Counted from the first letter of the stretch, positions 11,789 through 28,300 are shown. The stretch is DNA of 58,852 nt from Patescibacteria group bacterium (GCA_028866135.1 JAGWIS010000002.1:1-58852); one strand, 5' to 3'. A program made the numbers and translations. The notes: generated from the letters alone by a model not told the origin.

Positions 11789-12925
11789 ATGGATGCGAAA
11801 TCAAAGAAGATACTGGCGGCTTTTAAGAAGCAGGGCGCGCGCATCGAGACGGCTGCAAGGGTAAAGCTTGCAGGAAAGCCCGACTTCTCGCTCTGGTACA
11901 CGCCGGGCGTCGGCGTTGCGTCCACGTACCTCGCGAAGCATCCGGAAGATGCGAGGAAATTGTCCGTAAAGAAGAACAGCGTCGCCGTCATCTCCGATGG
12001 CTCTGCTGTGCTCGGCCTCGGCAACATCGGCCCCTATGGCGCGCTTCCGGTGATGGAAGGGAAGGCGCTCATATTTAAAGAGAAGGCGAACGTCGATGCG
12101 TGGCCGCTTGTCCTCGACACTCAGGATCCGGACGAGATCGTGCGGATAGTGAAAGCCGTCGCGCCGTCCTTTGGCGGCATCAATCTCGAAGACATCGCCG
12201 CGCCCAACTGCTTCGACATTGAGCGGCGCCTCGTCGAGGAGCTCGACATTCCGGTGATGCACGACGATCAGCACGGCACGGCCATCGTCGTGCTTGCGGG
12301 GCTTCTGAACGCGGCGAAAGTCGCAAAGAAGAATTTCAAGACGTTGAAGGTGGTCGTGAGCGGGGCGGGGGCGGCCGGCACCGCAGTTGCAAAATTGCTC
12401 ATGCTCGCGGGCATCAAAGACATCACTCTCCTCGATCGCGCGGGGACGCTCTACGCCGGCCGCAAAGGTATGAACACGCACAAAGCCGAGCTCGCCGCGC
12501 TCACGAATCCGCGCGGCGTGAAAGGCGGGCTCGCCGAAGCGATGCGGGGCGCGGACGTATTCATCGGCGTCTCCGGCAAAGGGCTCTTGAAGGCCGAGCA
12601 AGTGGCCTCGATGGCGCCGCGAAGCATCGTCTTTGCGATGGCGAATCCCGACCCTGAAATCCTTCCGGATGAGGCCAAGAAAGCGGGCGCGCTCGTGGTC
12701 GCCACCGGCCGCTCCGACTTCCCGAATCAGATAAATAACGCTCTCGTCTTTCCGGGTATCTTCCGCGGCGCGCTCGACCGCGGCGTGTCGAAGATTACCG
12801 AGACCACGAAGCTCCGCGCCGCTCGCGCGCTCGCGGCGCTCGTCGGCAAGCCGACTGCGAGTCACATCATCCCCGACCTCCTTGACCCGAGGGTGGTAAA
12901 GGCCGTCGCGCGCGCCGTGCGCTAG
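11789..12925 (+). CDS. NAD(P)-dependent malic enzyme (short prokaryotic type)
   Basis: YTPGV, GLGNIGP, DDQHGTA and the GAGAAG dinucleotide-binding motif; 378 aa. Confidence 0.9.
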   Translation: MDAKSKKILAAFKKQGARIETAARVKLAGKPDFSLWYTPGVGVASTYLAKHPEDARKLSVKKNSVAVISDGSAVLGLGNIGPYGALPVMEGKALIFKEKANVDAWPLVLDTQDPDEIVRIVKAVAPSFGGINLEDIAAPNCFDIERRLVEELDIPVMHDDQHGTAIVVLAGLLNAAKVAKKNFKTLKVVVSGAGAAGTAVAKLLMLAGIKDITLLDRAGTLYAGRKGMNTHKAELAALTNPRGVKGGLAEAMRGADVFIGVSGKGLLKAEQVASMAPRSIVFAMANPDPEILPDEAKKAGALVVATGRSDFPNQINNALVFPGIFRGALDRGVSKITETTKLRAARALAALVGKPTASHIIPDLLDPRVVKAVARAVR

Positions 12926-12943
12926 TTTTGCTATAATCCGCGT

Positions 12944-13504
12944 ATGTCTACCACCACCATCATTCTCATCGTCATCGCGATTATCGTGCTCTGGGTTATT
13001 AGCGCGTACAACCGCCTCGTTACGCTCGTGAATCAGGCAAAGGAAGCCTGGGCCGATATCGCCGTCCAGCTGAAGCGCCGCTACGATCTCATCCCGAATC
13101 TCGTCGAGACGGTGAAAGGATACGCCGCGCACGAATCAAGCGCGTTTGAAAACGTGACGAAAGCGCGCGCGGCCGCGATGGGCGCCTCCGCTCCCGCTGC
13201 TAAAGCGCAGGCCGAGAATCAGCTCTCGGGCGCTCTCAAAACGCTCTTCGCCGTTTCCGAAGCGTATCCGGATCTCAAAGCGAATCAGAATTTCCTCCAG
13301 CTCCAGCGGGAGCTCGGCGACACCGAAGACAAGATTCAGGCCTCCCGCCGCTTTTACAACACGACCGTGATGACGCTCAACACTGCGGAGCAATCCTTCC
13401 CCGGCAATCTCATCGCCTCGTCATTTGGCTTCACGCCGATGGATCTTTTTGAGCTTTCCGCCGCAGACGCCGCGGCTTCCGAGCCAGTAAAGGTTAGTTT
13501 TTAG
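12944..13504 (+). CDS. lemA: LemA family protein
   Basis: N-terminal transmembrane segment, YNRLV, RRYDLIPNLV, YPDLKAN and RRFYN motifs. Confidence 0.9.
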   Translation: MSTTTIILIVIAIIVLWVISAYNRLVTLVNQAKEAWADIAVQLKRRYDLIPNLVETVKGYAAHESSAFENVTKARAAAMGASAPAAKAQAENQLSGALKTLFAVSEAYPDLKANQNFLQLQRELGDTEDKIQASRRFYNTTVMTLNTAEQSFPGNLIASSFGFTPMDLFELSAADAAASEPVKVSF

Positions 13505-13530
13505 CCACTAGGGAATGGCCACTAGTGAAA

Positions 13531-13890
13531 ATGCAGTCATACAAAGATCTCATCGTTTGGCAGAAGGGAATCGATCTTGTAGCCTCGGTTTATAAACTTA
13601 CCGATCGGTTCCCGAAATCGGAACAATTCGGCCTTGTCAGTCAAATGCGGCGCGCCTCCGTTTCCATTCCTTCAAACCTTGCCGAGGGGTACGCGCGCAA
13701 GCATCGGGCCGAATATCTTCAGTTCGTGCGTATAGCTTTCGGTTCTGGCGCCGAGCTCGAGACACAATTGATCATCGCGAAAAAACTCGGATTCGCGCAA
13801 AGCAAGGACCTCACGGTCATCATGTCCTTGCTCGACGAGATCATGCGCATGCTGAATAAGTTTTCTTCCTCCCTAATGGCTAAACCCTAA
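13531..13890 (+). CDS. Four-helix-bundle protein (23S rRNA intervening-sequence protein family)
   Basis: YKDLIVWQK, FPK.E.FGL.SQ.RRA..SI.SN.AEG and G.E..TQL motifs. Start taken at the ATG at 13531 (the track GTG is at 13525). Confidence 0.85.
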   Translation: MQSYKDLIVWQKGIDLVASVYKLTDRFPKSEQFGLVSQMRRASVSIPSNLAEGYARKHRAEYLQFVRIAFGSGAELETQLIIAKKLGFAQSKDLTVIMSLLDEIMRMLNKFSSSLMAKP

Positions 13891-14801
13891 TGGCTATGAA
13901 CTTGTATCAGCAGCGGTCGAGCAATATCCGACGGACCTGGGCGCTCGTGTTCGGGTTCCTGATTGTCGTCATCGCGGTGGGGTACGCCGTCTCCTGGTAC
14001 TACGGCAATCCATCCATTCTCTACATTGCGGTCGTCATTGCGTTTGCGACCAATTTCTACGCATACTGGGCCTCGGATAAACTTGTGCTCTCTCTGAACC
14101 ATGCCCGTCCGGCGACCCGGGAGGAATTTTTCGATTACTACACCGTCGTCGAGAATCTCTCCATTGCTGCCGGCCTGCCGAAGCCGAAGCTCTACGTGAT
14201 CGACGATCCGGCGCCAAATGCGTTTGCCACCGGGCGTGATGAAAAGCATGCGGTCGTCTGCGCAACGACCGGCCTGCTTTCCATGATGACCCGCGCCGAG
14301 CTCGAGGGCGTCATCGGCCACGAGCTCTCGCACATCAAGAATCGCGACATGCTCCTCATGACGATCGCGGTCGTGCTCGCCGGCTTCGTCGCCATAGTTG
14401 CAGACATCTTCCTCCGCATGTCGTTCTGGGGCGGCGGGCAGCGCGACGATCGCCAGGGTGGAAACAATGCTCTTCTTATGATTCTCGCGGTCGTCGGCAT
14501 CGTGCTCGCGCCTATTGCCGCAAAGCTCATCGAGCTCGCCGTCTCGCGCCGCCGCGAATTCCTCGCCGACGCTTCCGGCGTCCTCCTCACGCGCTATCCG
14601 GAAGGACTCGCCTCCGCGCTCCGGAAGATCGGCAGCTATGCCTCGCCGATGCAAAACGCAAACGCCGCCACTGCGCACCTCTTCATCGGCGATCCCTTCG
14701 GGGCGAAGCCCGCGGGGAGCGCGGGCTGGCTCGAGCGGATGTTCTCCACGCACCCGCCGATACCGGACCGTATCAAGGCGCTCCTTAATTCGCAAGCCTA
14801 A
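13890..14801 (+). CDS. htpX: Zinc metalloprotease HtpX (M48 family)
   Basis: HELSHIKNRD (HExxH) motif, four transmembrane segments, and a C-terminal STHPPIPDRI motif. Confidence 0.9.
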   Translation: MAMNLYQQRSSNIRRTWALVFGFLIVVIAVGYAVSWYYGNPSILYIAVVIAFATNFYAYWASDKLVLSLNHARPATREEFFDYYTVVENLSIAAGLPKPKLYVIDDPAPNAFATGRDEKHAVVCATTGLLSMMTRAELEGVIGHELSHIKNRDMLLMTIAVVLAGFVAIVADIFLRMSFWGGGQRDDRQGGNNALLMILAVVGIVLAPIAAKLIELAVSRRREFLADASGVLLTRYPEGLASALRKIGSYASPMQNANAATAHLFIGDPFGAKPAGSAGWLERMFSTHPPIPDRIKALLNSQA

Positions 14802-14855
14802 TTTCAGGATTTTTTAGAAAATGTTTATTTGGTACTAGACCAAGTGTTATTATGT

Positions 14856-15491
14856 ATGGGTATGCGATCGGATACCCCTCTTAAATATCCGAAGAAGAGC
14901 CATCGCAAGACGGTCCGCATACCGAGACCGTCGCAATCGCTCGCAGAATTTTTCGGCATCATGTTAGGTGATGGGGGCATCAACAATCTCTGGCAGGCGA
15001 ACATCACGATGAATTCCGTCGAAGATGCGGAGTATGCACTCTATGTACAGAAACTCATAGAAAATCTTTTCGGCATCTTGCCGCCGGTTCGGAAACGAAA
15101 GGGGCGCAACGCGGTCGTCATATCGGCCGCAAGCACCACGCTCGTCGATTTCCTGGTCGAGAAAGGTCTCCCACGCGGTAACAAACTCAAAAACGGAGTG
15201 TGTATACCGGATTGGGTCCTTGAGAAATGCTCTTACCGTGTCGCGTGCGTACGAGGGTTGATGGATACGGACGGTTGCCTGTTCATACATTCGCACCGAA
15301 CAGGAGGGAAGAGGTATGAGAACATCGGGCTCTGCTTTACCAGCTATTCTCCAAAGATGCTTGGGCAGGTCGCGGGGGTATTTGAAGAATTCGGGATTAT
15401 GCCGCATATTGGTAGTCAGGGACGCAGTATCTACCTGTATCGGGCAGATGCCGTCGCTAAGTATCTGAAGGTGTTTAGTACGTCTATATAG
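14856..15491 (+). CDS. Free-standing double-motif LAGLIDADG homing-endonuclease-like protein
   Basis: Two LAGLIDADG motifs, FFGIMLGDGG and VRGLMDTDGC. Lies in an AT-richer segment directly upstream of tRNA-Ser. Confidence 0.8.
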   Translation: MGMRSDTPLKYPKKSHRKTVRIPRPSQSLAEFFGIMLGDGGINNLWQANITMNSVEDAEYALYVQKLIENLFGILPPVRKRKGRNAVVISAASTTLVDFLVEKGLPRGNKLKNGVCIPDWVLEKCSYRVACVRGLMDTDGCLFIHSHRTGGKRYENIGLCFTSYSPKMLGQVAGVFEEFGIMPHIGSQGRSIYLYRADAVAKYLKVFSTSI

Positions 15492-15532
15492 ACGGATTAG
15501 TTCGCTGCATGAAAAATGGAAGAGTGCACACG

Positions 15533-15621
15533 GAGGCGTCGGATAGCGGTTTATTCCACCGCCTTGGAAAGGCGGCAGGCTCGAAAGGGTCTCGAGAGTT
15601 CGAATCTCTCCGCCTCCGCCA
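15533..15621 (+). tRNA. tRNA-Ser (anticodon GGA), CCA encoded
   Basis: Acceptor GGAGGCG/CGCCUCC, anticodon arm CCGCC-UUGGAAA-GGCGG, long variable arm, T-arm GAGAG-UUCGAAU-CUCUC. Confidence 0.9.
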
Positions 15622-15653
15622 GGGATACTTTTTATCGGAGAGACCCGAGTGCC

Positions 15654-16967
15654 TTATTTTAAGCCGTCGTTTGGAACGGTTCGAATCCCGTTGCGGTTCG
15701 ACCGCGAAGGGATTCGAACTTTTATGCGCCATTGTAGGATAGCTAGATCGGCGAATAATGGTTCGAGTTCAACGACGAAAGCGCGGCGCTTGAGTTGATG
15801 CGCCGCGACGAGCGTGCTGCCGCTTCCCGAGAAGGAATCCAGAATAATTTCACCCGGACGCGTACACCTACGAATAGCCCGCTCGTGAAGCTGGGGCGGT
15901 TTAGCCGTTGCATGAGTGTATTCGTTGCCCGGTAGCCGCTTGGCGAGCCATATATCAAGCATGTCGAGAATGTCGTCGGCGAGGCGGTTGCCGGTGCCCG
16001 TTTCTTTGTTCATCACCTCGTTCAGATTCTCAAGGCCTTTGGCGAGATAAGGGGTTCCACGAGTCGCATAGACGGTCGGTTCGTAGCACTTCGAGAACGC
16101 GACCCGCGGGGTCATATTGATCCCATTTTTTATCCACAAGCAGACCCGTCGATTCTTAAGGCCGAGTTCCTCGAATAATTCTTGGATTAGACCGATCTGG
16201 CTTTGGTCGTTCCAGTAGAAGACGTGCGCGTCGTCCTTGGTGACGGCGAGTGCCGCCTCCATGCTTTTTTTGAGGAACTCGCGGTACTCGGACTTCGTGC
16301 GTTTGTCATTTACCGAACCGCCGTATGACTGCTTGCCGCCGAGGCCGCGATCATAGTCGATGGAAAGGTTGTACACGGGGTCGCTGTATATCATCGACGC
16401 GCGTTCCTTGCCGAAGAGTTTCTTCAGCACCGCCGGATCGGTGGAATCGCCAACAATCAATCGATGCGGTCCCAACTGGTACAGGTCGCCGACCTTGCTT
16501 TTGGGCTTCTTGATTTTCGCCTTTTCCTTTTCTTCGTCCCAATCGTCGTCTTCGACTTCAAGTTGAGCGTCCCACATCTCGGACAGCACGCTTTCGTCCA
16601 TGCCGATATCCATCAAGAACTGGGGGTCGAAAGCTTCGAGTTTGTCGATATCCCAGGTGCCACCGAGCGCGTTGCTGGCAATCAGATACCGCCGTTCTTC
16701 TTCCGCTGTAAGCAGCCTGCTTGGTACCCGAACGTCTATCATTTCGTCACCTCTGCCAAGTTGTATCATCGCTTGACGGCGCTGATTACCGGCAAGCATT
16801 CTCATATTGAGATTTATGGCGATGATCTCTGCATAGCCGAGTTTATCGATATTGCACATAAGGTCGGCCATCTGTTTTACCGAGATCGTTCTCGGATTAT
16901 CCGGATGCGGTATTAAGTCGGAGACGCGCCGTTGTTCCGTGTGCCACACTATTTTTGGTTTTTTCAT
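15654..16967 (-). CDS. ParB-like nuclease domain fused to a beta-class N6A/N4C DNA methyltransferase
   Basis: N-terminal ParB box (LIPHPDNPR ... GNQRRQA), motif IV SDPVYN, then motif I DSFSGSGST. Motif IV preceding motif I indicates the beta class. Confidence 0.85.
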   Translation of the reverse strand: MKKPKIVWHTEQRRVSDLIPHPDNPRTISVKQMADLMCNIDKLGYAEIIAINLNMRMLAGNQRRQAMIQLGRGDEMIDVRVPSRLLTAEEERRYLIASNALGGTWDIDKLEAFDPQFLMDIGMDESVLSEMWDAQLEVEDDDWDEEKEKAKIKKPKSKVGDLYQLGPHRLIVGDSTDPAVLKKLFGKERASMIYSDPVYNLSIDYDRGLGGKQSYGGSVNDKRTKSEYREFLKKSMEAALAVTKDDAHVFYWNDQSQIGLIQELFEELGLKNRRVCLWIKNGINMTPRVAFSKCYEPTVYATRGTPYLAKGLENLNEVMNKETGTGNRLADDILDMLDIWLAKRLPGNEYTHATAKPPQLHERAIRRCTRPGEIILDSFSGSGSTLVAAHQLKRRAFVVELEPLFADLAILQWRIKVRIPSRSNRNGIRTVPNDGLK

Positions 16968-17435
16968 ACCGAGTAGAGCTGATTGAGTAAACGATAATCA
17001 GCCGTGCCCGGAATTCGACGACTAGAGATGCAAAAACCTGTCGCAGATTTCCGAGCCCAGGGAGGTTTTGCCTTGCGGCAAAACAACAACGTAATTTCCC
17101 CTTCAGCTTCGAAATCTACGACAGGCTTTTCAGCACCGCGTAACATGGTAACGATACTCTCATTGGTCCAGCGTGCAATGTGGATAACTTTGGTCCCGCT
17201 AAATATGCCGTACTTACAGCACGTTCTTGAAAAAACGTTACCAGTCCAATAACCCTTAAGGGGCCTAACATTCGTAACATTTGGAAAATCGACCCGCGAC
17301 CCGAGTGCATCGGAATGGCCGAGTAAAATGCGCTAAAATACCCTTATGGTGCTTGGCCTCAAAATCTTGAATCCCGAGTAGCCCGCAAAATAAGAAGCTG
17401 TGAGCGAAAGCTCGCGGCGACTATATTTTGCGAGA

Positions 17436-17577
17436 AGGCGGAGAGATTTGAACGCCGGAGCATGTTTCAGCCAGCAGGCTGAAACAGCGAGGCGGTGCCT
17501 AGCCCGAGGATGAGCGACGGCGAATCCGAGAGGCGAAGGAGAAAAGCGTAATCGCGGTCTCTCCACCTCCGCCCGAA
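17436..17577 (-). pseudogene. tRNA-Ser-like remnant (degenerate; T-arm and anticodon arm do not fold)
   Basis: The minus strand ends TTCAAATCTCTCCGCCTTC, compared with TTCGAATCTCTCCGCCTCC in tRNA-Ser(GGA). The 5' GGAGGTG can pair with CGCCTTC. The length of about 140 nt is far too long for a tRNA. Confidence 0.3.
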
Positions 17578-17657
17578 GTATTTAGTATCGGAGGTATGCG
17601 GACGCATATCCCAACGATGCGCCGTGGACGCATTGGAGGTATAGTTATGATGAGATT

Positions 17658-18719
17658 ATGAGTTCTAAAAAGATCAAAGTTATAGACCTGTTCTGCGGTA
17701 TCGGTGGCCTCTCCCACGGCCTCGTAAAAGAAGGGCTTGATGTTGTCGCGGGCATCGACAACGACGGCGACTGCAAATTTGGATACGAGTACAACAATAA
17801 GGCTCGGTTCATTTGCGAAGACATACTTAAGGTCACCGCAAGCGACATCAACGAGATGTTTGGCAACAAAGAAAAAACTATACGCGTTCTCGCGGGTTGC
17901 GCTCCGTGCCAACCGTTCTCCAAACTGAATCTCAAAAAAGTTACGGAGAAGCAACTCCAGCCGTTGGAAAAGTTCGCTTGCCTTATCGAAGAGACTCAGC
18001 CCGATATCGTCTCGATGGAAAACGTAAGTGGCCTCGCCGACAAGAAAAAGTACCCAATATTCGATACGTTCATCAAGACGCTCGAAAAAAATGGCTATCA
18101 ATATAAATATGAGGTCGTTGATGTATCCGAATATGGCGTGCCTCAACGCAGGAAGCGTTTGGTGCTTCTTGCTTCGAAATTTGGCGAAATCGCCCTTATA
18201 AAACGCACACACAAAAACAAAAAAGTCACTGTTCGCGACGTTATCAGCGGACTTGAACCGATCGGTCACGGGGAAGCGAGTGCCACCGATCCGCTTCATC
18301 GCGCCAGGACATTGAACGCAACGAATCTCAAGAGGGTGAAGGCTACTCCATGTGACGGTGGAAATTCATCAAGTTGGAGTAAGGACTTGGTTTTGAAGTG
18401 TCACAAAGCAAAGAGCGGCAAGACGTATCAAGCAACCGTCTATGGCCGCATGCGCTGGGACGATCCCGCTCCAACAATGACCACTCATTGCACAGGGCTA
18501 GGCAATGGACGTTTCGGCCACCCGGAACAAAATCGAGCGATTAGCCTACGCGAAGCCGCCCTTTTTCAAACGTTCCCAAAAAGTTATAAATTTACGCCCG
18601 ATGACGAGCCGATCGTGATGAAACGAATCTCGAAATTCATCGGTAACGCCGTCCCGGTCAAATTGGGCTCCGTCATCGGCAAAAGCATCAGGGAGCATGT
18701 TGACCTGTATGGCAACTAA
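17658..18719 (+). CDS. dcm: DNA (cytosine-5)-methyltransferase
   Basis: Motif I DLFCGIGG, motif IV GCAPCQPFS, motif VI ENV, motif VIII QRRKR, motif X GNAVP. Confidence 0.92.
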   Translation: MSSKKIKVIDLFCGIGGLSHGLVKEGLDVVAGIDNDGDCKFGYEYNNKARFICEDILKVTASDINEMFGNKEKTIRVLAGCAPCQPFSKLNLKKVTEKQLQPLEKFACLIEETQPDIVSMENVSGLADKKKYPIFDTFIKTLEKNGYQYKYEVVDVSEYGVPQRRKRLVLLASKFGEIALIKRTHKNKKVTVRDVISGLEPIGHGEASATDPLHRARTLNATNLKRVKATPCDGGNSSSWSKDLVLKCHKAKSGKTYQATVYGRMRWDDPAPTMTTHCTGLGNGRFGHPEQNRAISLREAALFQTFPKSYKFTPDDEPIVMKRISKFIGNAVPVKLGSVIGKSIREHVDLYGN

Positions 18720-20334
18720 ACCACAATTTTCGTTCGGAATATCGCTGAGCGTCCTGAACCACCTCGGCAGAAACTTATATCGCAGCTTCACCACCGTGTT
18801 GGGCGAGGCGATTTCGAATTCTTGGGATGCCGATGCGAGCAATGTTTGGATACATATAGACCGCGATAGCAATAGCTTTTTCATCAAAGATGATGGATCG
18901 GGTATGGACGCGACAGATTTTCAGGATAAATTCTTGAAAATCGGTTATTCGAAGAGGAAAGAGGCGACCGCTTCCTCTCGCAACCGCCCGTTCATCGGTC
19001 GCAAAGGCATAGGCAAACTCGCTCTTCTTTCCTGCGCCGAACAGATAACCGTCATTTCGAAGGTTCGCGGTGGCGAGTACGTGGGGGGCCTGATTGACAA
19101 TCGTGGCTTAGATCAAGCTATTACCGACGACCTGACGCCGGACGAATACCCGTTGGATACCGTAGATATGACAGCTTTCGCTTCTTACATCGAAGGTCAC
19201 GACCAAGGGACCATAATCCGTTTCCAAAACACCAAGGACGGCATACGCAACAGTTCGGATTTCCTCAAGAAGACGATTGCGCTCTATTTCCGTTTCGCTT
19301 TGCTGGACGATTCATTCGCCATCTTTCTTGACGGCGAGAAAGTGACACTCGACGACCTGAACGATCTCGCCGAAAAAACCGAATTTCTTTGGAGCATAAA
19401 CGGCATTGAAGACCCGTACATCGCCGAAAAGCTGAAGAAACTCAAAGAGAGGAAGGATATGACGGTGGGCACTGAATTCAAAGGGTTTATCGCTTCAGTC
19501 GAGAAGCCGCGTGACCTCAAAGCAATTGGAACCGCGGAAAAAGCCAGCATTGATCTATTCGTTAACGGCAGAATGCGTGAGAGGGATATTTTGAAGCATA
19601 TCCCTACGGCCCGAGTGGTCGAGAGCTACTTGTACGGTCAAATTCACTTTGACTCTTTGGACGACGATATAGATCGCTTCACCAGCAGCCGCGAAGGCAT
19701 CGTGGCCGACGATCCGAAGTTTGAGCAATTTCTCGGAGACTTCAAGACCCACGTGCTGACTCCCATACTTGAAGAGTGGGATAAGTGGCGCAGAAAGCAC
19801 AAGAAAGATGGCGATATCGATAACGATGCGATACCCGCGAAAGAGCGGAAAGCAGGAGAACTTTTCAATGCGATCTCGGGAGAATATACGTTGCCCGCTG
19901 GTTCGACGAACAAACAAAAAGTCGATGCCTGGGTGGATGCACTGAGCGGCGACGCGAGCTTTAATTTCGCGTCATATGCTGAGTGTTTTGTGTCCGAAAA
20001 TCTCGTACGAAAATTTATCGCAGATCAGGGCACTGTTCTTTCGACGGAAGCGCAGCGCGATATCACGGAGTGGAAGCGGAAGGAAACGCAAAATAAAACC
20101 AACGGGAACGTCATGATTGACCTCAGGCTCAACAATGACGACAAAAGTTATCTCGACATGGCAGGTCTCGCTAATTTGGTCGATCGTACGGGTAGTCTCT
20201 CTACGGATTCTAGAACATATCGTCCGATTCGAGATGCGCTCATGCACACCGCCCTTCTCACTGACAAAGCGAAGCGACGACTGACAACGGTTTACGACAA
20301 CATTCGGGCTAGAATAATCGCTCTCCTGAGTTGA
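18697..20334 (+). CDS. GHKL (HATPase_c_3 / MORC-like) ATPase with a C-terminal Rx4H HEPN-like motif
   Basis: Bergerat motifs EAISNSWDA, DDGSGMD and GRKGIGKLA. C-terminal RPIRDALMH at nt 20221-20247. The start overlaps the dcm stop. Confidence 0.85.
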   Translation: MLTCMATKPQFSFGISLSVLNHLGRNLYRSFTTVLGEAISNSWDADASNVWIHIDRDSNSFFIKDDGSGMDATDFQDKFLKIGYSKRKEATASSRNRPFIGRKGIGKLALLSCAEQITVISKVRGGEYVGGLIDNRGLDQAITDDLTPDEYPLDTVDMTAFASYIEGHDQGTIIRFQNTKDGIRNSSDFLKKTIALYFRFALLDDSFAIFLDGEKVTLDDLNDLAEKTEFLWSINGIEDPYIAEKLKKLKERKDMTVGTEFKGFIASVEKPRDLKAIGTAEKASIDLFVNGRMRERDILKHIPTARVVESYLYGQIHFDSLDDDIDRFTSSREGIVADDPKFEQFLGDFKTHVLTPILEEWDKWRRKHKKDGDIDNDAIPAKERKAGELFNAISGEYTLPAGSTNKQKVDAWVDALSGDASFNFASYAECFVSENLVRKFIADQGTVLSTEAQRDITEWKRKETQNKTNGNVMIDLRLNNDDKSYLDMAGLANLVDRTGSLSTDSRTYRPIRDALMHTALLTDKAKRRLTTVYDNIRARIIALLS

Positions 20335-20369
20335 ATGGCGTCGTGATCGTAATAGTGGCTTATGCGGAG

Positions 20370-21167
20370 ATGAGAAAGTGGATCGTAATCAAAAAATCCA
20401 TAGGCGAGACGCCGCTCATGGCGCTCAATCGCTGGAAGAAGGGGCATCCGGCGTATACGAGCATGCCCGCGTCATACGCGGGACGGCTTGATCCGATGGC
20501 GAGTGGCAAACTTCTCGTGCTCCTCGGAGAAGAATGCAAGCGGCAGAAAGAATACACGGGCCTCGATAAGGAGTACGAGATAGAAGTGCTGCTTGATGCG
20601 GGAAGCGATACGGGGGATGCGCTTGGGATGGTGGAGTATGCGGAGAAGGAATCAAAGATAAACTTCGGCGCGCTTCGCAAGGCGCTTCGCGCCGAACTCG
20701 GAACGCACGCGCGGCCATACCCGCTCTTCTCCTCGAAGACCGTGCACGGGAAGCCGCTTTTCCTGCACACACTCGAAGGCATGAGCCATCACATCGAAAT
20801 CCCGAAGCACGAAGAACGCATCTACCGCATTTCCGAGCGGGGAATTGCGCAGGTATCCGCGGCCGCGCTTCAAGCACGCATCGCGGACTTTCTCGCGAAG
20901 GTGCCGAAATCGGACGAGCCGTCGAAACAGCTCGGCGCGGACTTCCGCATTGACGACGTGTGCGCGAGCTGGGAGAAACTGTTTGCGGAAGTTGGCGAGG
21001 GCACGTTCACGATCCTCTCGCTTCGCGTCGCCTGCGGCTCGGGGACGTACATGCGCTCGCTCGCCGGGCGCATCGGAGAAGCGCTCGGCACGCGCGCGCT
21101 TGCGCTCTCCATCAAGCGCACGAAGATAGGGACGTATTGGATGGGGTGGTGGGTGAAAAGTCTCTAA
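20370..21167 (+). CDS. truB: tRNA pseudouridine synthase, TruB family
   Basis: Catalytic motif GRLDPMASGKLLVLLG and KEY motifs. Start taken at MRKWIVIKK. Confidence 0.8.
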   Translation: MRKWIVIKKSIGETPLMALNRWKKGHPAYTSMPASYAGRLDPMASGKLLVLLGEECKRQKEYTGLDKEYEIEVLLDAGSDTGDALGMVEYAEKESKINFGALRKALRAELGTHARPYPLFSSKTVHGKPLFLHTLEGMSHHIEIPKHEERIYRISERGIAQVSAAALQARIADFLAKVPKSDEPSKQLGADFRIDDVCASWEKLFAEVGEGTFTILSLRVACGSGTYMRSLAGRIGEALGTRALALSIKRTKIGTYWMGWWVKSL

Positions 21168-21232
21168 AGCCTTGCTTGGTGCGTTGTGTGGATAGCCGAT
21201 TGCGCGCCCGCCACGCGTACTAGAATGGAAGT

Positions 21233-21553
21233 GTGCCGGAAAACGCCGATACAGCGAAAAACGTCTTGAACACCCGTACCATTGCGGCCATCGTCGTGGT
21301 GATTGTCGTGATAGCGCTCGCCGCGTGGTATGCCTGGCCGGCGCCGCAGCAGCAGAGCGCTCAGACGGCCGGGGAGCTCAATGCCGCGCTTGAGCAGGTG
21401 CAGTCGGCGTCCTCGGTCTCCGTCCCCGCGACGTCCAATCCTCTGAAGCAGGCGACGCCCGCCGTGAATCCGATCGACGTGACGAATCCTTTTAATAGTC
21501 CTGCCGCCTCAAGCGGCGCTGCAAACCATGCGTACCAGAATCCTTTTCAGTAG
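21233..21553 (+). CDS. Hypothetical membrane-anchored protein (GTG start)
   Basis: Single transmembrane segment (IAAIVVVIVVIALAAWYAW) followed by a low-complexity tail. Overlaps the next gene by 26 nt. Confidence 0.5.
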   Translation: MPENADTAKNVLNTRTIAAIVVVIVVIALAAWYAWPAPQQQSAQTAGELNAALEQVQSASSVSVPATSNPLKQATPAVNPIDVTNPFNSPAASSGAANHAYQNPFQ

Positions 21554-23336
21554 CATCATAGGCGCCGCGCTCCTTTTCGGCGCCGCCGCTTCCGTCTCCG
21601 CGGCTTCCTCCGTCTTCGACATCACATATCCGATCCCCGAACTCGGCAACTGCGCCGATCGTCTCGCATGCAAGGCGTTCTGCAACGACACTGCAAACCA
21701 ATCCGCGTGCGAAGCGTTCGCGCAGGATCACGGAATTTCTGTCCAGCCCGCGGCTCCATCGCCATCGAGCGGGCAGGGAGAAGGACAGAATCAGGGCGCC
21801 GCGCTCGAGTCTCTCCAAAAGGACGGAGGTCCGGGGAAGTGCGCCTCCGGCGCCGCGGATCCGCAAGCCGCCTGCCACGCATACTGCAACGCCTCCGCGC
21901 ACATCCAGGAGTGCGTGCAGTATGGGAAAGATCACGGACTTCTGACGGGCGATCATCTCTCGCAGGCGGAGAAGGTGACGGCGGCGCTCAAGAGCGGGAT
22001 CCCGCTCCCTTCTGGATGCACCGATCAGGCGTCCTGCAAGCAGACGTGCGAGAATCCTTCATCGCTTGATCAGGCGAAGTCCTGCTTCGCGTTCGGCAAG
22101 GCCGCCGGGCTCCTGCCGCCGGGCTTCGATGAGTCGAAAGCTGAGAAAGTATTCTCGGCAGTTGCGAACGGGACCGCGCCGTTCTCGTCGATGAAAGACT
22201 TCCAGCAGTGCGAGCATCCGACGGACCCGGCGGTCGTGAAGAAGTGTACAGACTTTGCTGTGCAGAACGGGCTCATGACGCAGCAGCAAGCGGACGTGCT
22301 CCAACAGACGGGCGGCAAAGGCCCGGGCGGGTGCTCCGGGCAAGACGCATGCGAACAGTACTGTGCCAGTCATCAGGATGAGTGCTTCCAGTTCTCCCAG
22401 GAGCATAATCTGGTGACTCCGGAGCAGAAAGACGCGATGCAGCGCGCGGCCTCGCAGATGCAGAATGCGCTCAGCCGCGCTCCGGATTCCGTGCGGCAGT
22501 GCCTCGTGAGCGCTGTGGGGCAGGACACTCTCGACGCGATCACCTCCGGCGCGAAGCCGGGCACGCCGCAGCTCGGCCAGGCGATGCAGCAGTGCTTCCA
22601 ACAAGGGCAGAATGATTCCCAGATGCAGGAGCACCAAGGTCCGCCGCCGCAAGGTTTCGGCCAGGAGGGGATGGGCCCGCAGCCGCCAAACGGGCAGCCC
22701 GGCGGGCAGCAAGGATTCATGCCGCCAAACGGCCCGCAAGGCCCGAGCGGACAGAACCCTTCTCAGGATGGCCGGGGCCCAGATGGAGGAAATCAGAGAT
22801 TTTATCCGATGCCGCCAGGAGGAGCGCAGGGAGACCAGGGCCGGAGATTCATGCCGCCACCACAAAGTGGAAACCAAAGCGCGCCGCAATGGCAGCAGAA
22901 CGGGCAGGGAGCCCCGCAGCCCCAGGATCAAAACTATCCACAGATGAATTACGGGCCCCGGCCTGAAAGCGGATCGGGGCAAGGCGATTACGGAGATCAG
23001 AACTCCGGCGCCCCCTTCATGCCGCCGGGCGACCAGAGCGCACCGGGCACCGGAGTGTGGAATCCGCCGCAGGGCCAGACAGGCGAGGGCGGCGGAGGAA
23101 ACGTCATGATGCCGCCGCCCGGCTCAGGTTTGAATAATCCGCCGCCCGGCGCGGGGCAGATGCCGCCACCTCCGCCACCGGGAGGCATGATGGGAACTCC
23201 TCCACAAAGTACCAATACCGCGCCGGCGGGCGAAGTTGCTCCGCCCCCGCCTCCTCCGCCCTCTTCTCCTACTAGCTTCTCTTACCCGTTCAATCCGTCC
23301 ACTGCCGCCGCATTTCTGCCATTCATCCCGCACTAG
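21528..23336 (+). CDS. Secreted protein with repeated four-cysteine modules and a long P/G/Q-rich tail
   Basis: Signal peptide MRTRILFSSIIGAALLFGAAASVSA. Four to five C-x5-10-C-x3-C-x6-11-C-x2-[FY] modules. The C-terminal roughly 230 aa is rich in P, G and Q. Confidence 0.75.
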   Translation: MRTRILFSSIIGAALLFGAAASVSAASSVFDITYPIPELGNCADRLACKAFCNDTANQSACEAFAQDHGISVQPAAPSPSSGQGEGQNQGAALESLQKDGGPGKCASGAADPQAACHAYCNASAHIQECVQYGKDHGLLTGDHLSQAEKVTAALKSGIPLPSGCTDQASCKQTCENPSSLDQAKSCFAFGKAAGLLPPGFDESKAEKVFSAVANGTAPFSSMKDFQQCEHPTDPAVVKKCTDFAVQNGLMTQQQADVLQQTGGKGPGGCSGQDACEQYCASHQDECFQFSQEHNLVTPEQKDAMQRAASQMQNALSRAPDSVRQCLVSAVGQDTLDAITSGAKPGTPQLGQAMQQCFQQGQNDSQMQEHQGPPPQGFGQEGMGPQPPNGQPGGQQGFMPPNGPQGPSGQNPSQDGRGPDGGNQRFYPMPPGGAQGDQGRRFMPPPQSGNQSAPQWQQNGQGAPQPQDQNYPQMNYGPRPESGSGQGDYGDQNSGAPFMPPGDQSAPGTGVWNPPQGQTGEGGGGNVMMPPPGSGLNNPPPGAGQMPPPPPPGGMMGTPPQSTNTAPAGEVAPPPPPPPSSPTSFSYPFNPSTAAAFLPFIPH

Positions 23337-23353
23337 GCGAGACGCTCTCGGTC

Positions 23354-23397
23354 AAAGAGAACGCCCGGGCGCCTTTCGGCGCCCGGGCGTTCTCTTT
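23354..23397 (+). terminator. Rho-independent terminator
   Basis: 20-bp stem AAAGAGAACGCCCGGGCGCC-TTTC-GGCGCCCGGGCGTTCTCTTT followed by Ts. Confidence 0.7.
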
Positions 23398-23453
23398 TCA
23401 CCGGCATGGTTTTTAGAGAGTCCCATCGCCATGTACACTGCTAGGCACGCAGC

Positions 23454-24836
23454 ATGATCCCCAACAACTCGCCCTGGATACAGCAGCTGAAGCGCACGAG
23501 GCCGGTCGTCCCGCTTGAGGCTGACGCGCGAGCGGACGTGGCGATAGTGGGTGGCGGCATCGCCGGCGCAGCCACCGCATTCTTCACGCTCCGCGATACG
23601 GAGCAGAGCGTCATCTTGCTTGAGGCCGACAAGGTCGCGCACGGCGCGACCGGGCACAATGCCGGACAGATCACGAGCTACTTCGAGCGGCCGCTCTCCG
23701 AGCTCGCGCAGGAATTCGGACTCGAGCTTGCGATCGATGGCCAGCGCTCCGTCGAATCCGCATGGAAGCTCATCGACCAGATAGTTGAGGAAGCGGGACT
23801 CCAGACGCCGCTCTATCGCTTCACCGGATACACCGGCCTCTCCACTCTCGAGCAGGTCTTGCTTCACTTGAAAGATAATCGCTGCAGAGCAGACGGCGGG
23901 CTCCCGGTCGAGACGATGATCGTCGCCGAGGAGTGGGTGGAGCGCAAAGACATTCCTACAGAGTACAAAGACCTTTACGGAACAGTCCCGCAGAAGGATG
24001 TGCTTAGCCTCCTCGAAACGAACAATACCGACTACGTTGCTTCTCTCGCATTCCAGAAAGGCTGCATGAACAGCGCGCTCTTTACCGAAGAGCTCATCGG
24101 ATACCTCATGACGGAGTACAAAGGCCGGTTTGCGTTCTACGAGGGCAGCCCGGTGAAGACAGTGCGGCTCAAAGAGGGAAGCGGGACGCTCAAAGTCCTT
24201 GCTCACATGGTCGAAGCGCAGAAAATCATCCTCTGCACGAACGGATTCGAGCATTTTTCTATCGTGAACGAGGCGGGGCCGGAAATCGATACTGCATTCC
24301 ACCACTCGATTGCCGGACGCATCGGCTATATGTCGGGCTACATCGAGCCGTTTGATAATCCGCCTGCGGCCGTGAGCTATTTCCCAAAGACGAACGAGCG
24401 TGGCGGAGACCCGACGGGCGAAAGTTATTTCTACCTCACGCGCCGTCCGCACGAAGGCGACAAGAAGAGCTTCCACAGTCTCGTCTGCGCGGGCGGCCCG
24501 GAGAAAGTGCTTCCGAGCGGAGCGGATTATTCCCGCGCGCACTCGTGCTCGGAAGACATACGGGACGAGATCGATGATTTCCTGCGTTCTAATTACAGCA
24601 AGCACCCCGGGCCGGAGACCGAGTACGCTTTTTGCTGGCACGGACTCATGGGCTATACGCCAAGCGGCATCCGTCGCGTGGGCCCCGAGCCCTGCAATCC
24701 GGCGCTGCTCTACAATCTCGGCTGCAACGGCGTCGGCATCCTGCCGTCGGTCTTCGGCGGAAAAAGAATTTCCGAATTTCTGCAGGGCAAGAAGATGAAA
24801 CCCTCCCTCTTCGACCCGCACGACCAGAGGCGCTAG
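23454..24836 (+). CDS. FAD-dependent oxidoreductase (DAO family)
   Basis: N-terminal DVAIVGGGIAGAATAF dinucleotide-binding motif; 460 aa. Confidence 0.85.
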   Translation: MIPNNSPWIQQLKRTRPVVPLEADARADVAIVGGGIAGAATAFFTLRDTEQSVILLEADKVAHGATGHNAGQITSYFERPLSELAQEFGLELAIDGQRSVESAWKLIDQIVEEAGLQTPLYRFTGYTGLSTLEQVLLHLKDNRCRADGGLPVETMIVAEEWVERKDIPTEYKDLYGTVPQKDVLSLLETNNTDYVASLAFQKGCMNSALFTEELIGYLMTEYKGRFAFYEGSPVKTVRLKEGSGTLKVLAHMVEAQKIILCTNGFEHFSIVNEAGPEIDTAFHHSIAGRIGYMSGYIEPFDNPPAAVSYFPKTNERGGDPTGESYFYLTRRPHEGDKKSFHSLVCAGGPEKVLPSGADYSRAHSCSEDIRDEIDDFLRSNYSKHPGPETEYAFCWHGLMGYTPSGIRRVGPEPCNPALLYNLGCNGVGILPSVFGGKRISEFLQGKKMKPSLFDPHDQRR

Positions 24837-24856
24837 CCGCGTGGTAGCATTTATGT

Positions 24857-25324
24857 ATGGAGACACCGGATAAAGAACTCCACCGCATCGCGATCACCTG
24901 CATTATCCACAACGACGCAGGGAAATATCTGGTGACCAAGCGAAGTCCCCGCAAGAAAGCATTTCCCAATAAGTGGACGGTGCCGGGCGGAGGATTGACC
25001 ACTGACGACTACCGCAATACGCCTCCGACGCATCATGAGCAGTGGTACAACGCAGCAGAGAAAGCGCTCCGCAGGGAAGTGCAAGAGGAGGTGAATGTCG
25101 AAATAGGAAAAGTACAGTATCTGCTCGATCTCACTTTCCTTCGTCCCGACGGAACTCCTGTGTTGGTGCTCAGTTATTACGCACCCTACGTTTCCGGAGA
25201 GGTGAAGCTCGACGAAGACGCGGTCGAGTACCGATGGGTGAGCCTCAAAGAGGCGAAAGAGCTCGATCTCATTTCCGGCATTTACGAGGAGCTCGAGATG
25301 GTAGATTCGCTCCTGAAAAAGTAA
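24857..25324 (+). CDS. NUDIX hydrolase
   Basis: Nudix box GGGLTTDDY...EKALRREVQEEVNVE. Confidence 0.85.
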   Translation: METPDKELHRIAITCIIHNDAGKYLVTKRSPRKKAFPNKWTVPGGGLTTDDYRNTPPTHHEQWYNAAEKALRREVQEEVNVEIGKVQYLLDLTFLRPDGTPVLVLSYYAPYVSGEVKLDEDAVEYRWVSLKEAKELDLISGIYEELEMVDSLLKK

Positions 25325-25337
25325 GCCAATAACTCTC

Positions 25338-25805
25338 ATGCCACGACGCGTTTACGGGGTATGCTTGGCGCTCATTCTTTTTTGCCTATGGATAGTCGTC
25401 GCGTATGGGACAAAGCCGGTAACGGAACCATCGGCAACGGGGGAGTTTGGCGGGGTGTCCTTGAAAATTGACTATGCGACAGCCGATCCGGCTCGCGAGC
25501 GGGGCCTCGGGGGGCGAGAGAGCGTCCCCGGCGACTACGGCATGCTCTTCGTCTTCCCAAGGGACGATACGTATGGCTTCTGGATGAAGGATATGCTCGT
25601 CCCCATCGACATGTTTTGGCTTGATGATAAAGGACAGGTCGTTTCGATAGTCGAAGACGCGGCGACCTCCACCTACCCCTTTGTCTTTTACCCAAGTGCC
25701 CCTGCCAGGTATGTCCTTGAGACCGCTGCGGGCTTTGCGAAGGCCCACGGCATCGCCCCCGGGACCCCGCTTCTGTTGAAAAATTTTCCAACCGTTTCCA
25801 AATAA
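25338..25805 (+). CDS. DUF192 domain protein
   Basis: N-terminal transmembrane or signal segment, GMLFVF, FWMKDMLVPIDMFWLD and YVLE motifs. Confidence 0.8.
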   Translation: MPRRVYGVCLALILFCLWIVVAYGTKPVTEPSATGEFGGVSLKIDYATADPARERGLGGRESVPGDYGMLFVFPRDDTYGFWMKDMLVPIDMFWLDDKGQVVSIVEDAATSTYPFVFYPSAPARYVLETAAGFAKAHGIAPGTPLLLKNFPTVSK

Positions 25806-25891
25806 CGCTGTCCACATAGCATTTGCGACAACCAGGAGTAAACTTAACCCCAAGCAACAATTTATTACCCGTTATTAAAACCGCCTGGCTC

Positions 25892-28300
25892 ATGTCAAAA
25901 ACCGTCAAAGCTCCTGTGCGCGTGAAAGCCTCTTCCGCCGACAAGCAGGCGCCTGGCGTTCACATTCAGGAGGCAGTGAAGCCGCCGGTTTCGAAAGAAA
26001 CGCTTCGCTATCGCGAAATGGTTCCGCAAATCGAGAAGCGCGACGGCCGACTCGTGCCGTTTGATTTCGAAAAGATTGCGGCGGCCGTGTGGAAAGCGAT
26101 GGCGGCGGTAGAAGAGGGCGATCGGGACGATGCAAACCTCGTCGCGCACCAGGTGGCGGGCGAGCTCGGGCGATTTGCGAAGAAATACAAGAGCTTCCTT
26201 CCGACTGTTGAAGGCATTCAGGACTCGGTGGAGAAATATTTGATCCTGAACGACTACGTGAAGACCGCGAAGGCGTACATTCTCTACCGCGACAAGCGCG
26301 CGCAGCTGCGCGCGGCGCACGTGGAGATTCCGGCGCACGTAAAAAAGCTCGCGGACGAAAGCAAGAAATATTTTGAAGGCAATGCGCTCGGCGAATTTGT
26401 GTATCTGCGCACGTATGCGAAATGGATTCCGGAAGAAGGTCGCCGCGAGACGTGGATCGAGACGGTGGATCGCTATGTGAACTTCATGCGCGAGAATCTC
26501 GGCACCAAGCTCACCGAAAAAGAGTATGCCGAGATACGCATGGGGATTTTGAAGCAAGAAGTGATGCCGTCGATGCGGCTCATGCAGTTTGCGGGAGAGG
26601 CTGCGCGCCGCTGCAACACGTGCGCATATAATTGTACGTTCACTGCGCCGGTGAAGCTCGAAGACTTTGCCGAGATCATGTATCTCTCGATGCAGGGATG
26701 CGGCGTCGGCTTCGCGGTGGAGAGCCAAAACATCGAACAACTTCCGCAAATCATGAAGCAGACGGGAAAGAAAGCGGAAGAGCACGTCATCGCCGACTCG
26801 AAAGAAGGCTGGTGCGACGCGCTCACGCTCGGACTGAAGACCTGGTACTCCGGCAAAGACATCACGTTTGATTATTCGAAGATTCGCCCGGCGGGTGCCC
26901 GCCTCAAGACGATGGGCGGCAAGGCCTCCGGCCCCGAGCCGCTGCGCTCCCTGCTTTCTTTTGCCCGCGAGCGCATCCTTGCGCGCCAGGGACGCCGTCT
27001 GCGCAACATCGACGCGCACGACATCATCTGCAAGATAGGGGAATGCGTGGTCGCCGGCGGCGTGCGCCGCACCGCGATGATCTCGCTCTCCGATCTCGAC
27101 GACGTGGAGATGCGCGACGCCAAGAAAGGCCAGTTCTACATGACGGATCCGCACCGCTCGGTCGCAAACAACTCCGCCGTGTACGAAATGCAGCCGACGA
27201 ATGCGCAGCTCATGGACGAATGGGTCGCGCTCATGAAGAGCGGTGCCGGCGAGCGCGGCATCTTCAACCGCGGATCGCTCGCAGCGACGTTCCCGAAGCG
27301 CCGCACCGAGCACTTCAAGGAAATCGGGTTCATTGATGAGGGTGGCGTGGTGCGCGGCTCTATCGGCACGAATCCCTGCGCGGAGATCATCCTACAGTCG
27401 AAGCAATTCTGCAATCTTTCCGAAGTCATCGCGCGTGCACACGATACTGAAGCATCGCTTTTGCGCAAGGCGCGCCTCGCCGCCATCCTCGGCACGTACC
27501 AGTCGACGCTCACGAATTTCAGCTACATATCAAAGGAGTGGACCGATCACTGCAAAGCAGAACGCCTCCTCGGCGTCTCGGTGACGGGGCAGTGGGACTC
27601 ACCGGCATCTCGCCAGCCAGAGATCATGCGCAAGGTGCGCGACATGGCAGTGAAGACGAACGTCACGTATGCGAAGCGCTTCGGCGTGGAGCGCTCGATG
27701 GCGGTGACGGCCGTGAAGCCTTCGGGCACCGTCTCGCAGACCTTCAACTGCGCGTCCGGCATCCATCCGCGCCACGCGCCGTATTACATCCGCCGCGTGC
27801 GCATCAGCGCGACTGACTCGCTCTTCAAGATGCTCCGCGACCAGGGCGTGCCGTATTACCCGGAAGTGGGGCAGTCGATGGAGGAAGCGAATACATTTGT
27901 ATTTGAATTCCCGGTAAAAGCACCCGATCATTCCAAAGAAGCGCGTTTCAAGGATAGCCTCACGGCGCTCGACCAGCTCGAGTACTGGAAGAAGGTGAAG
28001 CTCAATTTCACCGAGCACAATCCGTCGGCGACGATTTCCGTGGGAGAAGACGAGTGGATCAGCGTCGTCGACTGGATTCAGAAGAATTGGGACATCATCG
28101 GCGGACTTTCCTTCCTCCCGCGCCTCAACCACGTCTACCGCCTCGCACCCTACGAGACGATTACGGAAAAGGAATACGAGGAGCGCCTCGCTCGCTTCCC
28201 GAAAGTGGACTACTCGAAGCTCGTCGCCTATGAGCGCCAGGATGAGTCGGATATGAAGAAGGAGCTGGCCTGCGCCGGCGGAACCTGCGAAATCGTTTAG
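25892..28300 (+). CDS. nrdJ: Adenosylcobalamin-dependent (class II) ribonucleotide reductase with an N-terminal ATP-cone
   Basis: ATP-cone (VPQIEKRDGRLVPFDFEKI), TNPCAEI active-site motif, and a C-terminal CAGGTCEI cysteine pair. Start at the ATG at 25892 (the track TTG is at 25823). Confidence 0.9.
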   Translation: MSKTVKAPVRVKASSADKQAPGVHIQEAVKPPVSKETLRYREMVPQIEKRDGRLVPFDFEKIAAAVWKAMAAVEEGDRDDANLVAHQVAGELGRFAKKYKSFLPTVEGIQDSVEKYLILNDYVKTAKAYILYRDKRAQLRAAHVEIPAHVKKLADESKKYFEGNALGEFVYLRTYAKWIPEEGRRETWIETVDRYVNFMRENLGTKLTEKEYAEIRMGILKQEVMPSMRLMQFAGEAARRCNTCAYNCTFTAPVKLEDFAEIMYLSMQGCGVGFAVESQNIEQLPQIMKQTGKKAEEHVIADSKEGWCDALTLGLKTWYSGKDITFDYSKIRPAGARLKTMGGKASGPEPLRSLLSFARERILARQGRRLRNIDAHDIICKIGECVVAGGVRRTAMISLSDLDDVEMRDAKKGQFYMTDPHRSVANNSAVYEMQPTNAQLMDEWVALMKSGAGERGIFNRGSLAATFPKRRTEHFKEIGFIDEGGVVRGSIGTNPCAEIILQSKQFCNLSEVIARAHDTEASLLRKARLAAILGTYQSTLTNFSYISKEWTDHCKAERLLGVSVTGQWDSPASRQPEIMRKVRDMAVKTNVTYAKRFGVERSMAVTAVKPSGTVSQTFNCASGIHPRHAPYYIRRVRISATDSLFKMLRDQGVPYYPEVGQSMEEANTFVFEFPVKAPDHSKEARFKDSLTALDQLEYWKKVKLNFTEHNPSATISVGEDEWISVVDWIQKNWDIIGGLSFLPRLNHVYRLAPYETITEKEYEERLARFPKVDYSKLVAYERQDESDMKKELACAGGTCEIV

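Follow-up and report, generated by a model that had tools for sequence, protein, structure and literature searches.

GHKL ATPases encoded next to C5-cytosine DNA methyltransferase (Dcm) genes have been known since 2008 (PMC2292703). R.HgiDII was described in that year as a GHKL N-terminal domain joined to a C-terminal domain without an assigned fold (PMC2441816), and the HgiDII methylase modifies GTCGAC to give m5C (PMC2441816; PMC5867850). The R.NmeAIP type was also noted in 2008 and was later recognized as a paraMORC-HEPN fusion (PMC2441816, PMC3710099). In 2013, GHKL (paraMORC)-HEPN fusions of the Ymh family were reported in restriction-modification (RM) neighborhoods and likened to PrrC/RloC (PMC3710099). 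Here we analyzed a 58,852-nt stretch of DNA from a Patescibacteria group bacterium (GCA_028866135.1, JAGWIS010000002.1:1-58852), hereafter the window. It carries a two-gene cassette in which dcm overlaps the gene of a GHKL ATPase with a HEPN-like C-terminal domain.

The dcm gene and the ATPase gene form a discrete 2.7-kb mobile two-gene unit and travel together. A second copy lies on a contig of a Saccharibacteria metagenome-assembled genome (L001), with proteins 95% and 92% identical to those of the window. When window positions 14000–24000 were compared with L001 by blastn, similarity was confined to 17636–20339 (85.6% nucleotide identity), beginning 22 nt ahead of the dcm start codon and ending 5 nt past the ATPase stop, and the flanks were unrelated. 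Contigs encoding a 92%-identical ATPase (P0002) differ downstream (DUF1801, FecR). A 50%-identical pair is carried by pBM153, a 20-kb conjugative plasmid of Paracoccus tegillarcae. No convincing direct repeats flank the cassette or the low-GC island around it.

The features of the cassette are given below. Residue numbers refer to the 541-aa version of the ATPase; adding 4 gives the 545-aa numbering of an earlier annotation made from the DNA alone (the sequence-only reading). Alignment A1 holds 26 close homologs (61–92% identity), A2 holds 33 divergent cluster representatives (35–53% identity), and a further alignment is A3.

17636–20339 (+): limits of the mobile two-gene cassette, from the blastn similarity span against L001
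17658–18719 (+): dcm, 353 aa, C5-cytosine DNA methyltransferase (PF00145, TIGR00675, PADLOC models)
18697–18719 (+): gene overlap, with the ATPase ATG inside the 3′ end of dcm (sequence reading)
18709–19095 (+): GHKL (Bergerat-fold) ATPase domain (HATPase_c_3, invariant motif residues, Foldseek)
18805–18831, 18889–18909 and 18997–19023 (+): Bergerat motifs I (EAISNSWDA), II (DDGSGMD) and III (GRKGIGKLA), respectively
19096–19791 (+): middle (transducer or clamp-like) domain (span of NF050001 and PADLOC REase_II)
19792–20334 (+): C-terminal all-helical HEPN-like domain, residues 362–541 plus stop (AlphaFold2 model, phmmer)
19996–20010 (+): invariant E430-N431-x2-R434 (Ex3R) in a long helix (alignments A1, A2 and A3)
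20230–20247 (+): invariant R508-D-A-L-M-H513 (Rx4H), putative catalytic motif (conservation and model position)

The sequence-only reading had described a complete Dcm overlapped by a 545-aa open reading frame (ORF), the three Bergerat motifs in its product, the string RPIRDALMH at nt 20221–20247 and a pair that ends at the truB start. ORF calls, domain matches and translation agreed with all four. The dcm stop is TAA (18717–18719), and the ATPase ORF spans 18697–20334 with in-frame ATGs at 18697 and 18709, giving an overlap of 23 or 11 nt. Public gene calls start the ATPase gene at 18709 and therefore yield 541 aa. The two genes abut or overlap also in most related loci. The ATPase gene stops with TGA at 20332–20334, and the truB ORF begins mechanically at 20331, with its first in-frame ATG at 20370. 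GC content is 49–51% over ~15000–20500 vs ~58–65% on both sides. The AT-richer island described earlier for the pair was thus correct as to the lower GC, but the low-GC stretch extends beyond the two genes.

As to the left edge of the cassette, at least five assemblies (L092–L096) carry a 92%-identical copy. Three of these five start 48 nt upstream of dcm and two are cut within dcm. These contig starts suggest a repeat or a variable junction at the left boundary.

The ATPase belongs to a large family with more than 4,700 database clusters, and relatives are encoded in 380 of the species genomes scanned. Locus counts given here refer to the best 80 loci among these 380 genomes (57–92% identity). 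The bacterial loci come from Patescibacteria, Omnitrophota, Planctomycetota, Chloroflexota, Bacteroidota, Nitrospirota, Acidobacteriota, Pseudomonadota and others, and the archaeal loci from Woesearchaeota, Pacearchaeota and Thaumarchaeota. Between bacteria and archaea, the ATPase retains 57–64% identity. Searching these loci with the window Dcm by tblastn located a homolog in 77 of the 80, which answers positively the question raised by the sequence-only reading of whether homologs are linked to a methylase. It lies directly upstream on the same strand in about 70 loci, directly downstream on the same strand in two, in convergent orientation in two, and 2–3 kb upstream in two. Clustering of the neighboring ORFs across the 80 loci gave no third conserved gene, the next family being present in at most five. 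The ATPase gene is often found amid other defense genes (Type I RM, DISARM, vsr).

The product of 17658–18719 is a member of the C5-cytosine DNA methyltransferase (Dcm, PF00145) family. It matches PF00145 end to end over residues 6–345 (E 1.6e-59; 202 bits vs a cut-off of 22) and TIGR00675 above its cut-off (E 3e-40; 138.7 bits vs 100.65). The PADLOC models MTase_II and DrmMII also match, with E values of 5e-85 and 1e-78, respectively. The catalytic motifs DLFCGxGG, PCQPFS, ENV, QRRxR and GNAVP are all readable and conserved. Among 62 partner Dcms, conservation of the target-recognition region equals that of the catalytic motifs. Over these 62 pairs, Dcm and ATPase divergence correlate weakly (Pearson 0.12), but the tree is star-like and most pairs lie near 60% and 50% identity, so that the coefficient says little about co-divergence. 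A 20-kb span of the window including the cassette (7716–27501) contains no GTCGAC, which may be chance; the whole window has 30 sites.

The ATPase is a member of the GHKL superfamily by its Bergerat motifs. HATPase_c_3 matches residues 30–125 of the 545-aa ORF (E 3.3e-20, 73 bits vs a cut-off of 25). Residues E33, N37, D61, G63, G65, G97, K99, G100, G102 and K103 are invariant in the 33 divergent relatives, and G167 and T168 (motif IV, GT) are invariant or nearly so. The full-length structural model resembles the N-terminal and middle domains of TRAP1/Hsp90 (Foldseek E 5e-11), and only that part was matched. Against PDB sequences, the whole protein gave only weak matches to the N-terminal domains of Hsp90, MutL and MORC, and a sacsin N-terminal ATP-binding model also matched weakly (E 8e-7). 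No characterized family with an unrelated role matched the ATPase, a check that the sequence-only reading had raised. A Shedu-type (DUF4263) nuclease was considered and rejected, since no such match was present in the window ATPase or in HgiDII-type controls.

Residues 11–371 of the ATPase match NF050001, "BbrUII/HgiDII family restriction enzyme" (E 2.1e-87), over profile positions 1–367 of 659. The score of 294 bits vs a cut-off of 550 places the ATPase below the threshold for membership of this family. REBASE-derived PADLOC REase_II models match the same span. The first ~370 residues are thus homologous to these enzymes (E 2e-87, 30–35% identity), and the gene order is shared: a Dcm gene of the same family mostly lies immediately upstream of the BbrUII/HgiDII gene too. 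The window Dcm is 47–48% identical to the Dcms adjoining bona fide BbrUII/HgiDII enzymes, with an alignable target-recognition region. Plasmids carry both types, and a P2-like phage has the sister type as well, there with dcm in convergent orientation; one phage record annotates the BbrUII/HgiDII-type protein as ParaMORC3.

The two types part at the C-terminus. BbrUII/HgiDII enzymes have ~650–680 aa and end in a PD-(D/E)XK domain, whereas the window protein has 541 aa and ends in an unrelated 180-aa helical domain. Bona fide family members on plasmids of Burkholderia glumae, Halobaculum and Rhizobium match the profile at full length with 650–830 bits, each directly downstream of a Dcm. Toward the C-terminus, six bona fide members share an invariant GRxD...G.H..[ED]xK block of the PD-(D/E)XK type, and weak HSDR_N and PDDEXK_2 matches coincide with this block. 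The window ATPase has no GRxD...[ED]xK region; its homology to the family ends at about residue 370, and in tblastn against plasmid relatives the similarity stops at about residue 361–413.

The NF050001 homology and the 47–48% identity of the methylases together argue that the pair derives from a known RM type. By these comparisons, the cassette is a derivative of an HgiDII-type system in which the nuclease domain was replaced by a helical domain. Two statements of the sequence-only reading need correction on this evidence. It had reported no recognizable restriction endonuclease, and the N-terminal two thirds of the ATPase match a curated restriction-enzyme family. It had also proposed that the minimal pair would be a non-canonical system, and ATPase residues 11–371 as well as the Dcm are related to a known RM type.

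What replaced the nuclease domain was addressed through conservation and modeling. Three Rx4-6H strings occur in the ATPase, and such a string alone is no better than chance. Only at R508/H513 are both residues invariant among relatives of 35–53% identity, and this Rx4H motif rises above chance because it is conserved. R508 and H513 (R512/H517 in the sequence-only reading, which had asked for their conservation) are unchanged in the 26 close homologs and in the 33 divergent representatives alike, so the pair holds across the family. The residue following R508 is D or N in every relative aligned. Of the final 180 residues, just six do not vary (Y423, E430, N431, R434, R508 and H513).

A phmmer search with the last 178 residues against 1.84 billion cluster representatives gave 179 matches. 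The full-length matches listed carry the domain at the C-terminus of 550–590-aa proteins, and the remainder are mostly short pieces. By this search, the 180-aa domain appears confined to the ATPase's own family. The full-length model was mediocre over the C-terminal region. A domain-only AlphaFold2 model (35-sequence alignment) reached a predicted local distance difference test (pLDDT) of 91.9 and a predicted template modeling score (pTM) of 0.82, and it was all alpha. With residue 362 of the 541-aa protein as residue 1, the main modeled helices span 16–32, 41–79, 85–104, 123–130, 136–151 and 158–179, with a short turn at 117–120. E69, N70 and R73 (E430, N431 and R434) sit in the long helix 41–79, ahead of a helical insert that precedes the Rx4H motif. 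R147 (R508) is located in the final turn of the penultimate helix 136–151, and the loop that leads to the final helix starts with H152 (H513).

Published hallmarks of HEPN domains include a core of four helices in up-down arrangement, in which helices 2 and 3 are often separated by an insert, an Rx4-6H motif at the end of the penultimate helix with a polar residue (N, D or H) following its arginine, and an upstream Ex3[KR] in helix 2 (PMC3710099). Both sequence motifs, Rx4-6H with a polar residue after R and Ex3[KR], are present in the C-terminal domain, and in the model the placement of Rx4H and the insert fit these hallmarks. HEPN_Swt1 (PF18731) was the most recurrent non-GHKL Pfam match in the family, found below threshold in two samples of it (3 of 35 and 6 of 150 proteins; best E 6.8e-4). 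In a Foldseek comparison of the domain model with the PDB, rank 19 was 7bxo_F (TM 0.51), a HEPN toxin. The top match, which is not significant, was 2q00 (probability 0.82, E 0.5, TM 0.49 on target), listed as an HEPN-T family structure (PMC3710099). Taken together, the motifs, their modeled position and these weak but consistent matches make it very probable that the C-terminal domain belongs to HEPN.

The same GHKL and middle-domain chassis also occurs with other C-termini. A Neisseria gonorrhoeae pseudogene of the R.NmeAIP type, next to a Dcm, shares the chassis at 26.6% identity over residues 14–385 and ends in Hypoth_Ymh (PF09509, E 2.9e-25). At L007 (3011–7644), the gene of a 628-aa GHKL protein stands between a single Dcm gene and the HEPN-type gene, with a vsr-like gene upstream. 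The C-terminal part of this GHKL protein gives a match to the PADLOC model of SpbK (E 2.4e-16), a TIR protein; a Pfam check of this paralogue for TIR gave no match, leaving the PADLOC SpbK model as the sole one. At L016 (2371–7665), one Dcm gene is followed by an HgiDII-type gene split in two ORFs, which lack the last ~100 profile positions, and then by vsr and an intact HEPN-type gene. Here the HEPN-type gene could be replacing a decaying DNase-type partner. L037 (40–7674) and L046 (950–5367) have the HEPN-type gene directly downstream of DISARM drmA/drmB, with no Dcm in the fetched DNA. In a P2-like coliphage, a relative of the N-terminal chassis annotated "ParaMORC3" adjoins a Dcm. Across these arrangements, the chassis appears to keep a single Dcm family as partner, and its C-terminal effectors appear to be exchangeable.

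Two of these loci share a further neighbor. A 229–235-aa Cys-rich protein is encoded immediately downstream of the HEPN-type gene at L007 (7689–8378) and L037 (7676–8383). It carries a CxxC...HVPS motif, is possibly HNH- or zinc-ribbon-like, and has no family match.

Based on these results, we consider it an even call that the pair works as an RM-like mobile cassette in which methylation marks self and unmethylated DNA triggers an ATPase-gated HEPN-like RNase. Dcm would methylate a short target site in the host, and a GTCGAC-like site is possible from the family relationship. The GHKL and middle-domain chassis would bind DNA without the methyl mark; in related GHKL proteins, the middle domain is a DNA- or client-binding clamp (PMC12137116). 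ATP-driven GHKL dimerization would then pair two HEPN-like domains. An active site in HEPN nucleases requires the juxtaposition of two Rx4-6H motifs. Once activated, the HEPN-like domain would cut RNA and arrest translation, so that a phage or plasmid would be stopped by abortive infection or dormancy and not by DNA cutting. The same logic would make the cassette addictive, as lost methylation would activate the toxin. We favor this mechanism because the effectors found on the chassis (HEPN, SpbK-like) are of the abortive-infection kind, and because all characterized HEPN nucleases are RNases (PMC3710099). More tentatively, and somewhat short of an even call, the chassis may be a general methylation-state sensor with swapped DNase, HEPN and SpbK/TIR-like effectors, of which the RNase arm would be triggered by unmethylated DNA and would cause growth arrest or abortive infection by cutting RNA and not the DNA of the invader.

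Several results weigh against an RNase triggered by unmethylated DNA. The nearest characterized relatives cut DNA, not RNA. The reader of sequence or methylation in HgiDII-type enzymes could reside in the PD-(D/E)XK domain, which the window ATPase lacks. The window shows no depletion of GTCGAC (30 sites vs 23 expected), which gives no support for GTCGAC specificity. Three of the 80 loci have no Dcm in the fetched DNA; two of the three lie behind DISARM drmA/drmB, and their methylase may fall outside the fetched DNA. As for the effector, no profile or fold comparison of the C-terminal domain with HEPN reached significance. Pfam returned nothing in the C-terminal 178 aa or the middle region at E values up to 10. 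A C-terminal profile search of PDB sequences gave chance matches only (ferritin, NF-YC), and Foldseek of the domain model found nothing significant in the PDB (best E 0.5) or among viral structures. Comparison of A3 by hhalign with one Ymh sequence and with a 5-sequence Ymh alignment was negative, the Ymh-seeded homolog search having given 4 proteins, too few for a good profile. The HEPN-like C-terminus proposed by the sequence-only reading therefore stands in part: the domain is all-helical and its sequence motifs and modeled motif placement agree with the published hallmarks, but no profile or fold match is significant. A divergent Ymh domain was not detected in this region; hhalign was negative, and PF09509 matched neither the window ATPase nor appeared among the top families of 35 relatives.

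It is unlikely that the pair represents a conventional HgiDII-like Type II system in which the helical domain serves as a new DNase or DNA-recognition domain. The N-terminal 370 residues are homologous to characterized restriction enzymes, the partner methylase family and gene order are identical, and REBASE-derived PADLOC models would type the pair as RM type II. However, the PD-(D/E)XK motif is absent and the replacement domain is all-helical. NF050001 reaches just 294 bits of the required 550, over profile positions 1–367 only. The residues that do not vary agree with the HEPN signature for metal-independent RNases; characterized HEPN nucleases, as noted above, are all RNases.

A PrrC-like guard is distinctly unlikely. 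In such an arrangement, the HEPN RNase would be restrained by a partner RM/DISARM complex or by the Dcm protein and would fire when a phage disables that partner, with no sensing of unmethylated DNA. The same model has been proposed for paraMORC-Ymh fusions (PMC3710099). Suitable companions are present at L016 (HgiDII-type gene, vsr), L007 (second GHKL effector) and L037/L046 (drmA/drmB), but in ~70 of the 80 loci Dcm is the sole conserved neighbor and there is no restriction enzyme to guard. The cassette also comprises exactly two genes in both the window and L001.

We regard as highly unlikely that the pair is a selfish addiction module only, with the methylase as antidote, the ATPase-HEPN protein as toxin and no defense against phages or plasmids. 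The very high conservation across distant phyla (57–64% between bacteria and archaea), the sharp mobile limits and the copy on a conjugative plasmid would all suit such a module. Post-segregational killing and defense are not exclusive in RM systems and can coexist, however, and the ATPase gene is often found amid Type I RM, DISARM and vsr genes. Finally, it seems far-fetched that the C-terminal domain is a non-catalytic dimerization or regulatory part of a protein working with an unlinked nuclease: it has no significant homology to any nuclease, but five of its six invariant residues fit an active-site pattern (E, N, R ... R, H) and not a hydrophobic interface, and no other gene is conserved nearby.

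Other features of the window were recorded alongside the cassette. A second methylase adjoins the first, sharing the low-GC stretch with the Dcm cassette: a 437-aa protein encoded at 15654–16967 (−) has an N6/N4 DNA methylase domain in its C-terminal half (PF01555, E 2e-27). PADLOC MTase_II PDLC03229 matches it at full length (E 8e-46), and its N-terminus is ParB-like by eye only. A tRNA-Ser(GGA) gene lies at 15532–15621, and a 25-nt inverted copy of its 3′ end (84% complementary) is located at 17436–17460, in the 690-nt gap upstream of dcm. The two bracket the N6/N4 methylase gene, and the inverted copy may be a scar of integration or rearrangement. A near-perfect hairpin with 19-nt arms (15679–15719) stands between the tRNA-Ser gene and the 3′ end of the methylase gene that converges on it, and looks like a bidirectional terminator; the sole Rfam match to it was a chance match to a microRNA model. 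A free-standing LAGLIDADG homing-endonuclease-like ORF of 220 aa (14829–15491, +; LAGLIDADG_3 E 1.9e-8) sits between htpX (13890–14801) and tRNA-Ser. Farther away, a transfer-messenger RNA gene (4923–5386, −) has the predicted tag peptide AEYAAGHPSWQKNG, which lacks the usual hydrophobic (LAA-type) end. A 602-aa protein encoded at 21528–23336 (+) starts with a signal-like N-terminus, contains repeated modules with cysteines and ends in a long low-complexity tail rich in Pro, Gly and Gln.

Three things set the cassette apart: it is abundant, it is conserved in both bacteria and archaea, and it has a minimal form of two genes. Such strong conservation among phyla makes it a clear example of recent inter-domain gene transfer. 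Automated pipelines would call the pair Type II restriction-modification or simply "ATP-binding protein". A HEPN RNase as effector would mean that a sizeable class of systems now taken for DNA-cutting restriction enzymes follows a different principle. The minimal pair would allow a direct test of the 2013 prediction that GHKL-HEPN proteins couple methylation recognition to suicide at the RNA level. Sister families with DNase, Ymh-HEPN and SpbK-like tails offer a natural domain-swap series for locating the methylation sensor.

Our literature search found no paper on this C-terminal domain or family, and no experimental work on any GHKL-HEPN protein. Among described systems, PrrC/RloC resemble the window ATPase in that an NTPase regulates a C-terminal HEPN nuclease in an RM context with abortive-infection logic (PMC3710099). 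They use an ABC ATPase, whereas the window protein uses GHKL, an unrelated fold; moreover, PrrC guards a complete (Type I-linked) RM system, whereas here a lone methylase is usually the sole partner. Sacsin also combines an Hsp90-like GHKL module with a C-terminal HEPN domain, but it is a giant multidomain eukaryotic chaperone with another HEPN family and no methylase. In VcSduA (GHKL-Shedu, earlier annotated paraMORC3) and paraMORC4 (GHKL-TIR), GHKL and a clamp-like middle domain likewise control a C-terminal effector, and ATPase and nuclease mutants of VcSduA both lose defense (PMC12137116). VcSduA has a PD-(D/E)xK DNase and no methylase, whereas the window gene is tied to Dcm and has a HEPN-like effector.

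The paraMORC-Ymh fusions (R.NmeAIP type) share with the window protein a GHKL chassis and a C-terminal HEPN-type domain, with R-N/D-x3-H in both, and the chassis is homologous, as the Neisseria locus shows. Their C-terminal domains have no detectable kinship, however, and that of the window protein is restricted to its own family. The idea of a GHKL-HEPN protein is itself less new, as such fusions have already been described by comparative genomics (PMC3710099; PMC2441816). What our comparisons add is a putative HEPN-like effector, distinct and family-specific, on a chassis of the HgiDII/paraMORC3 type.

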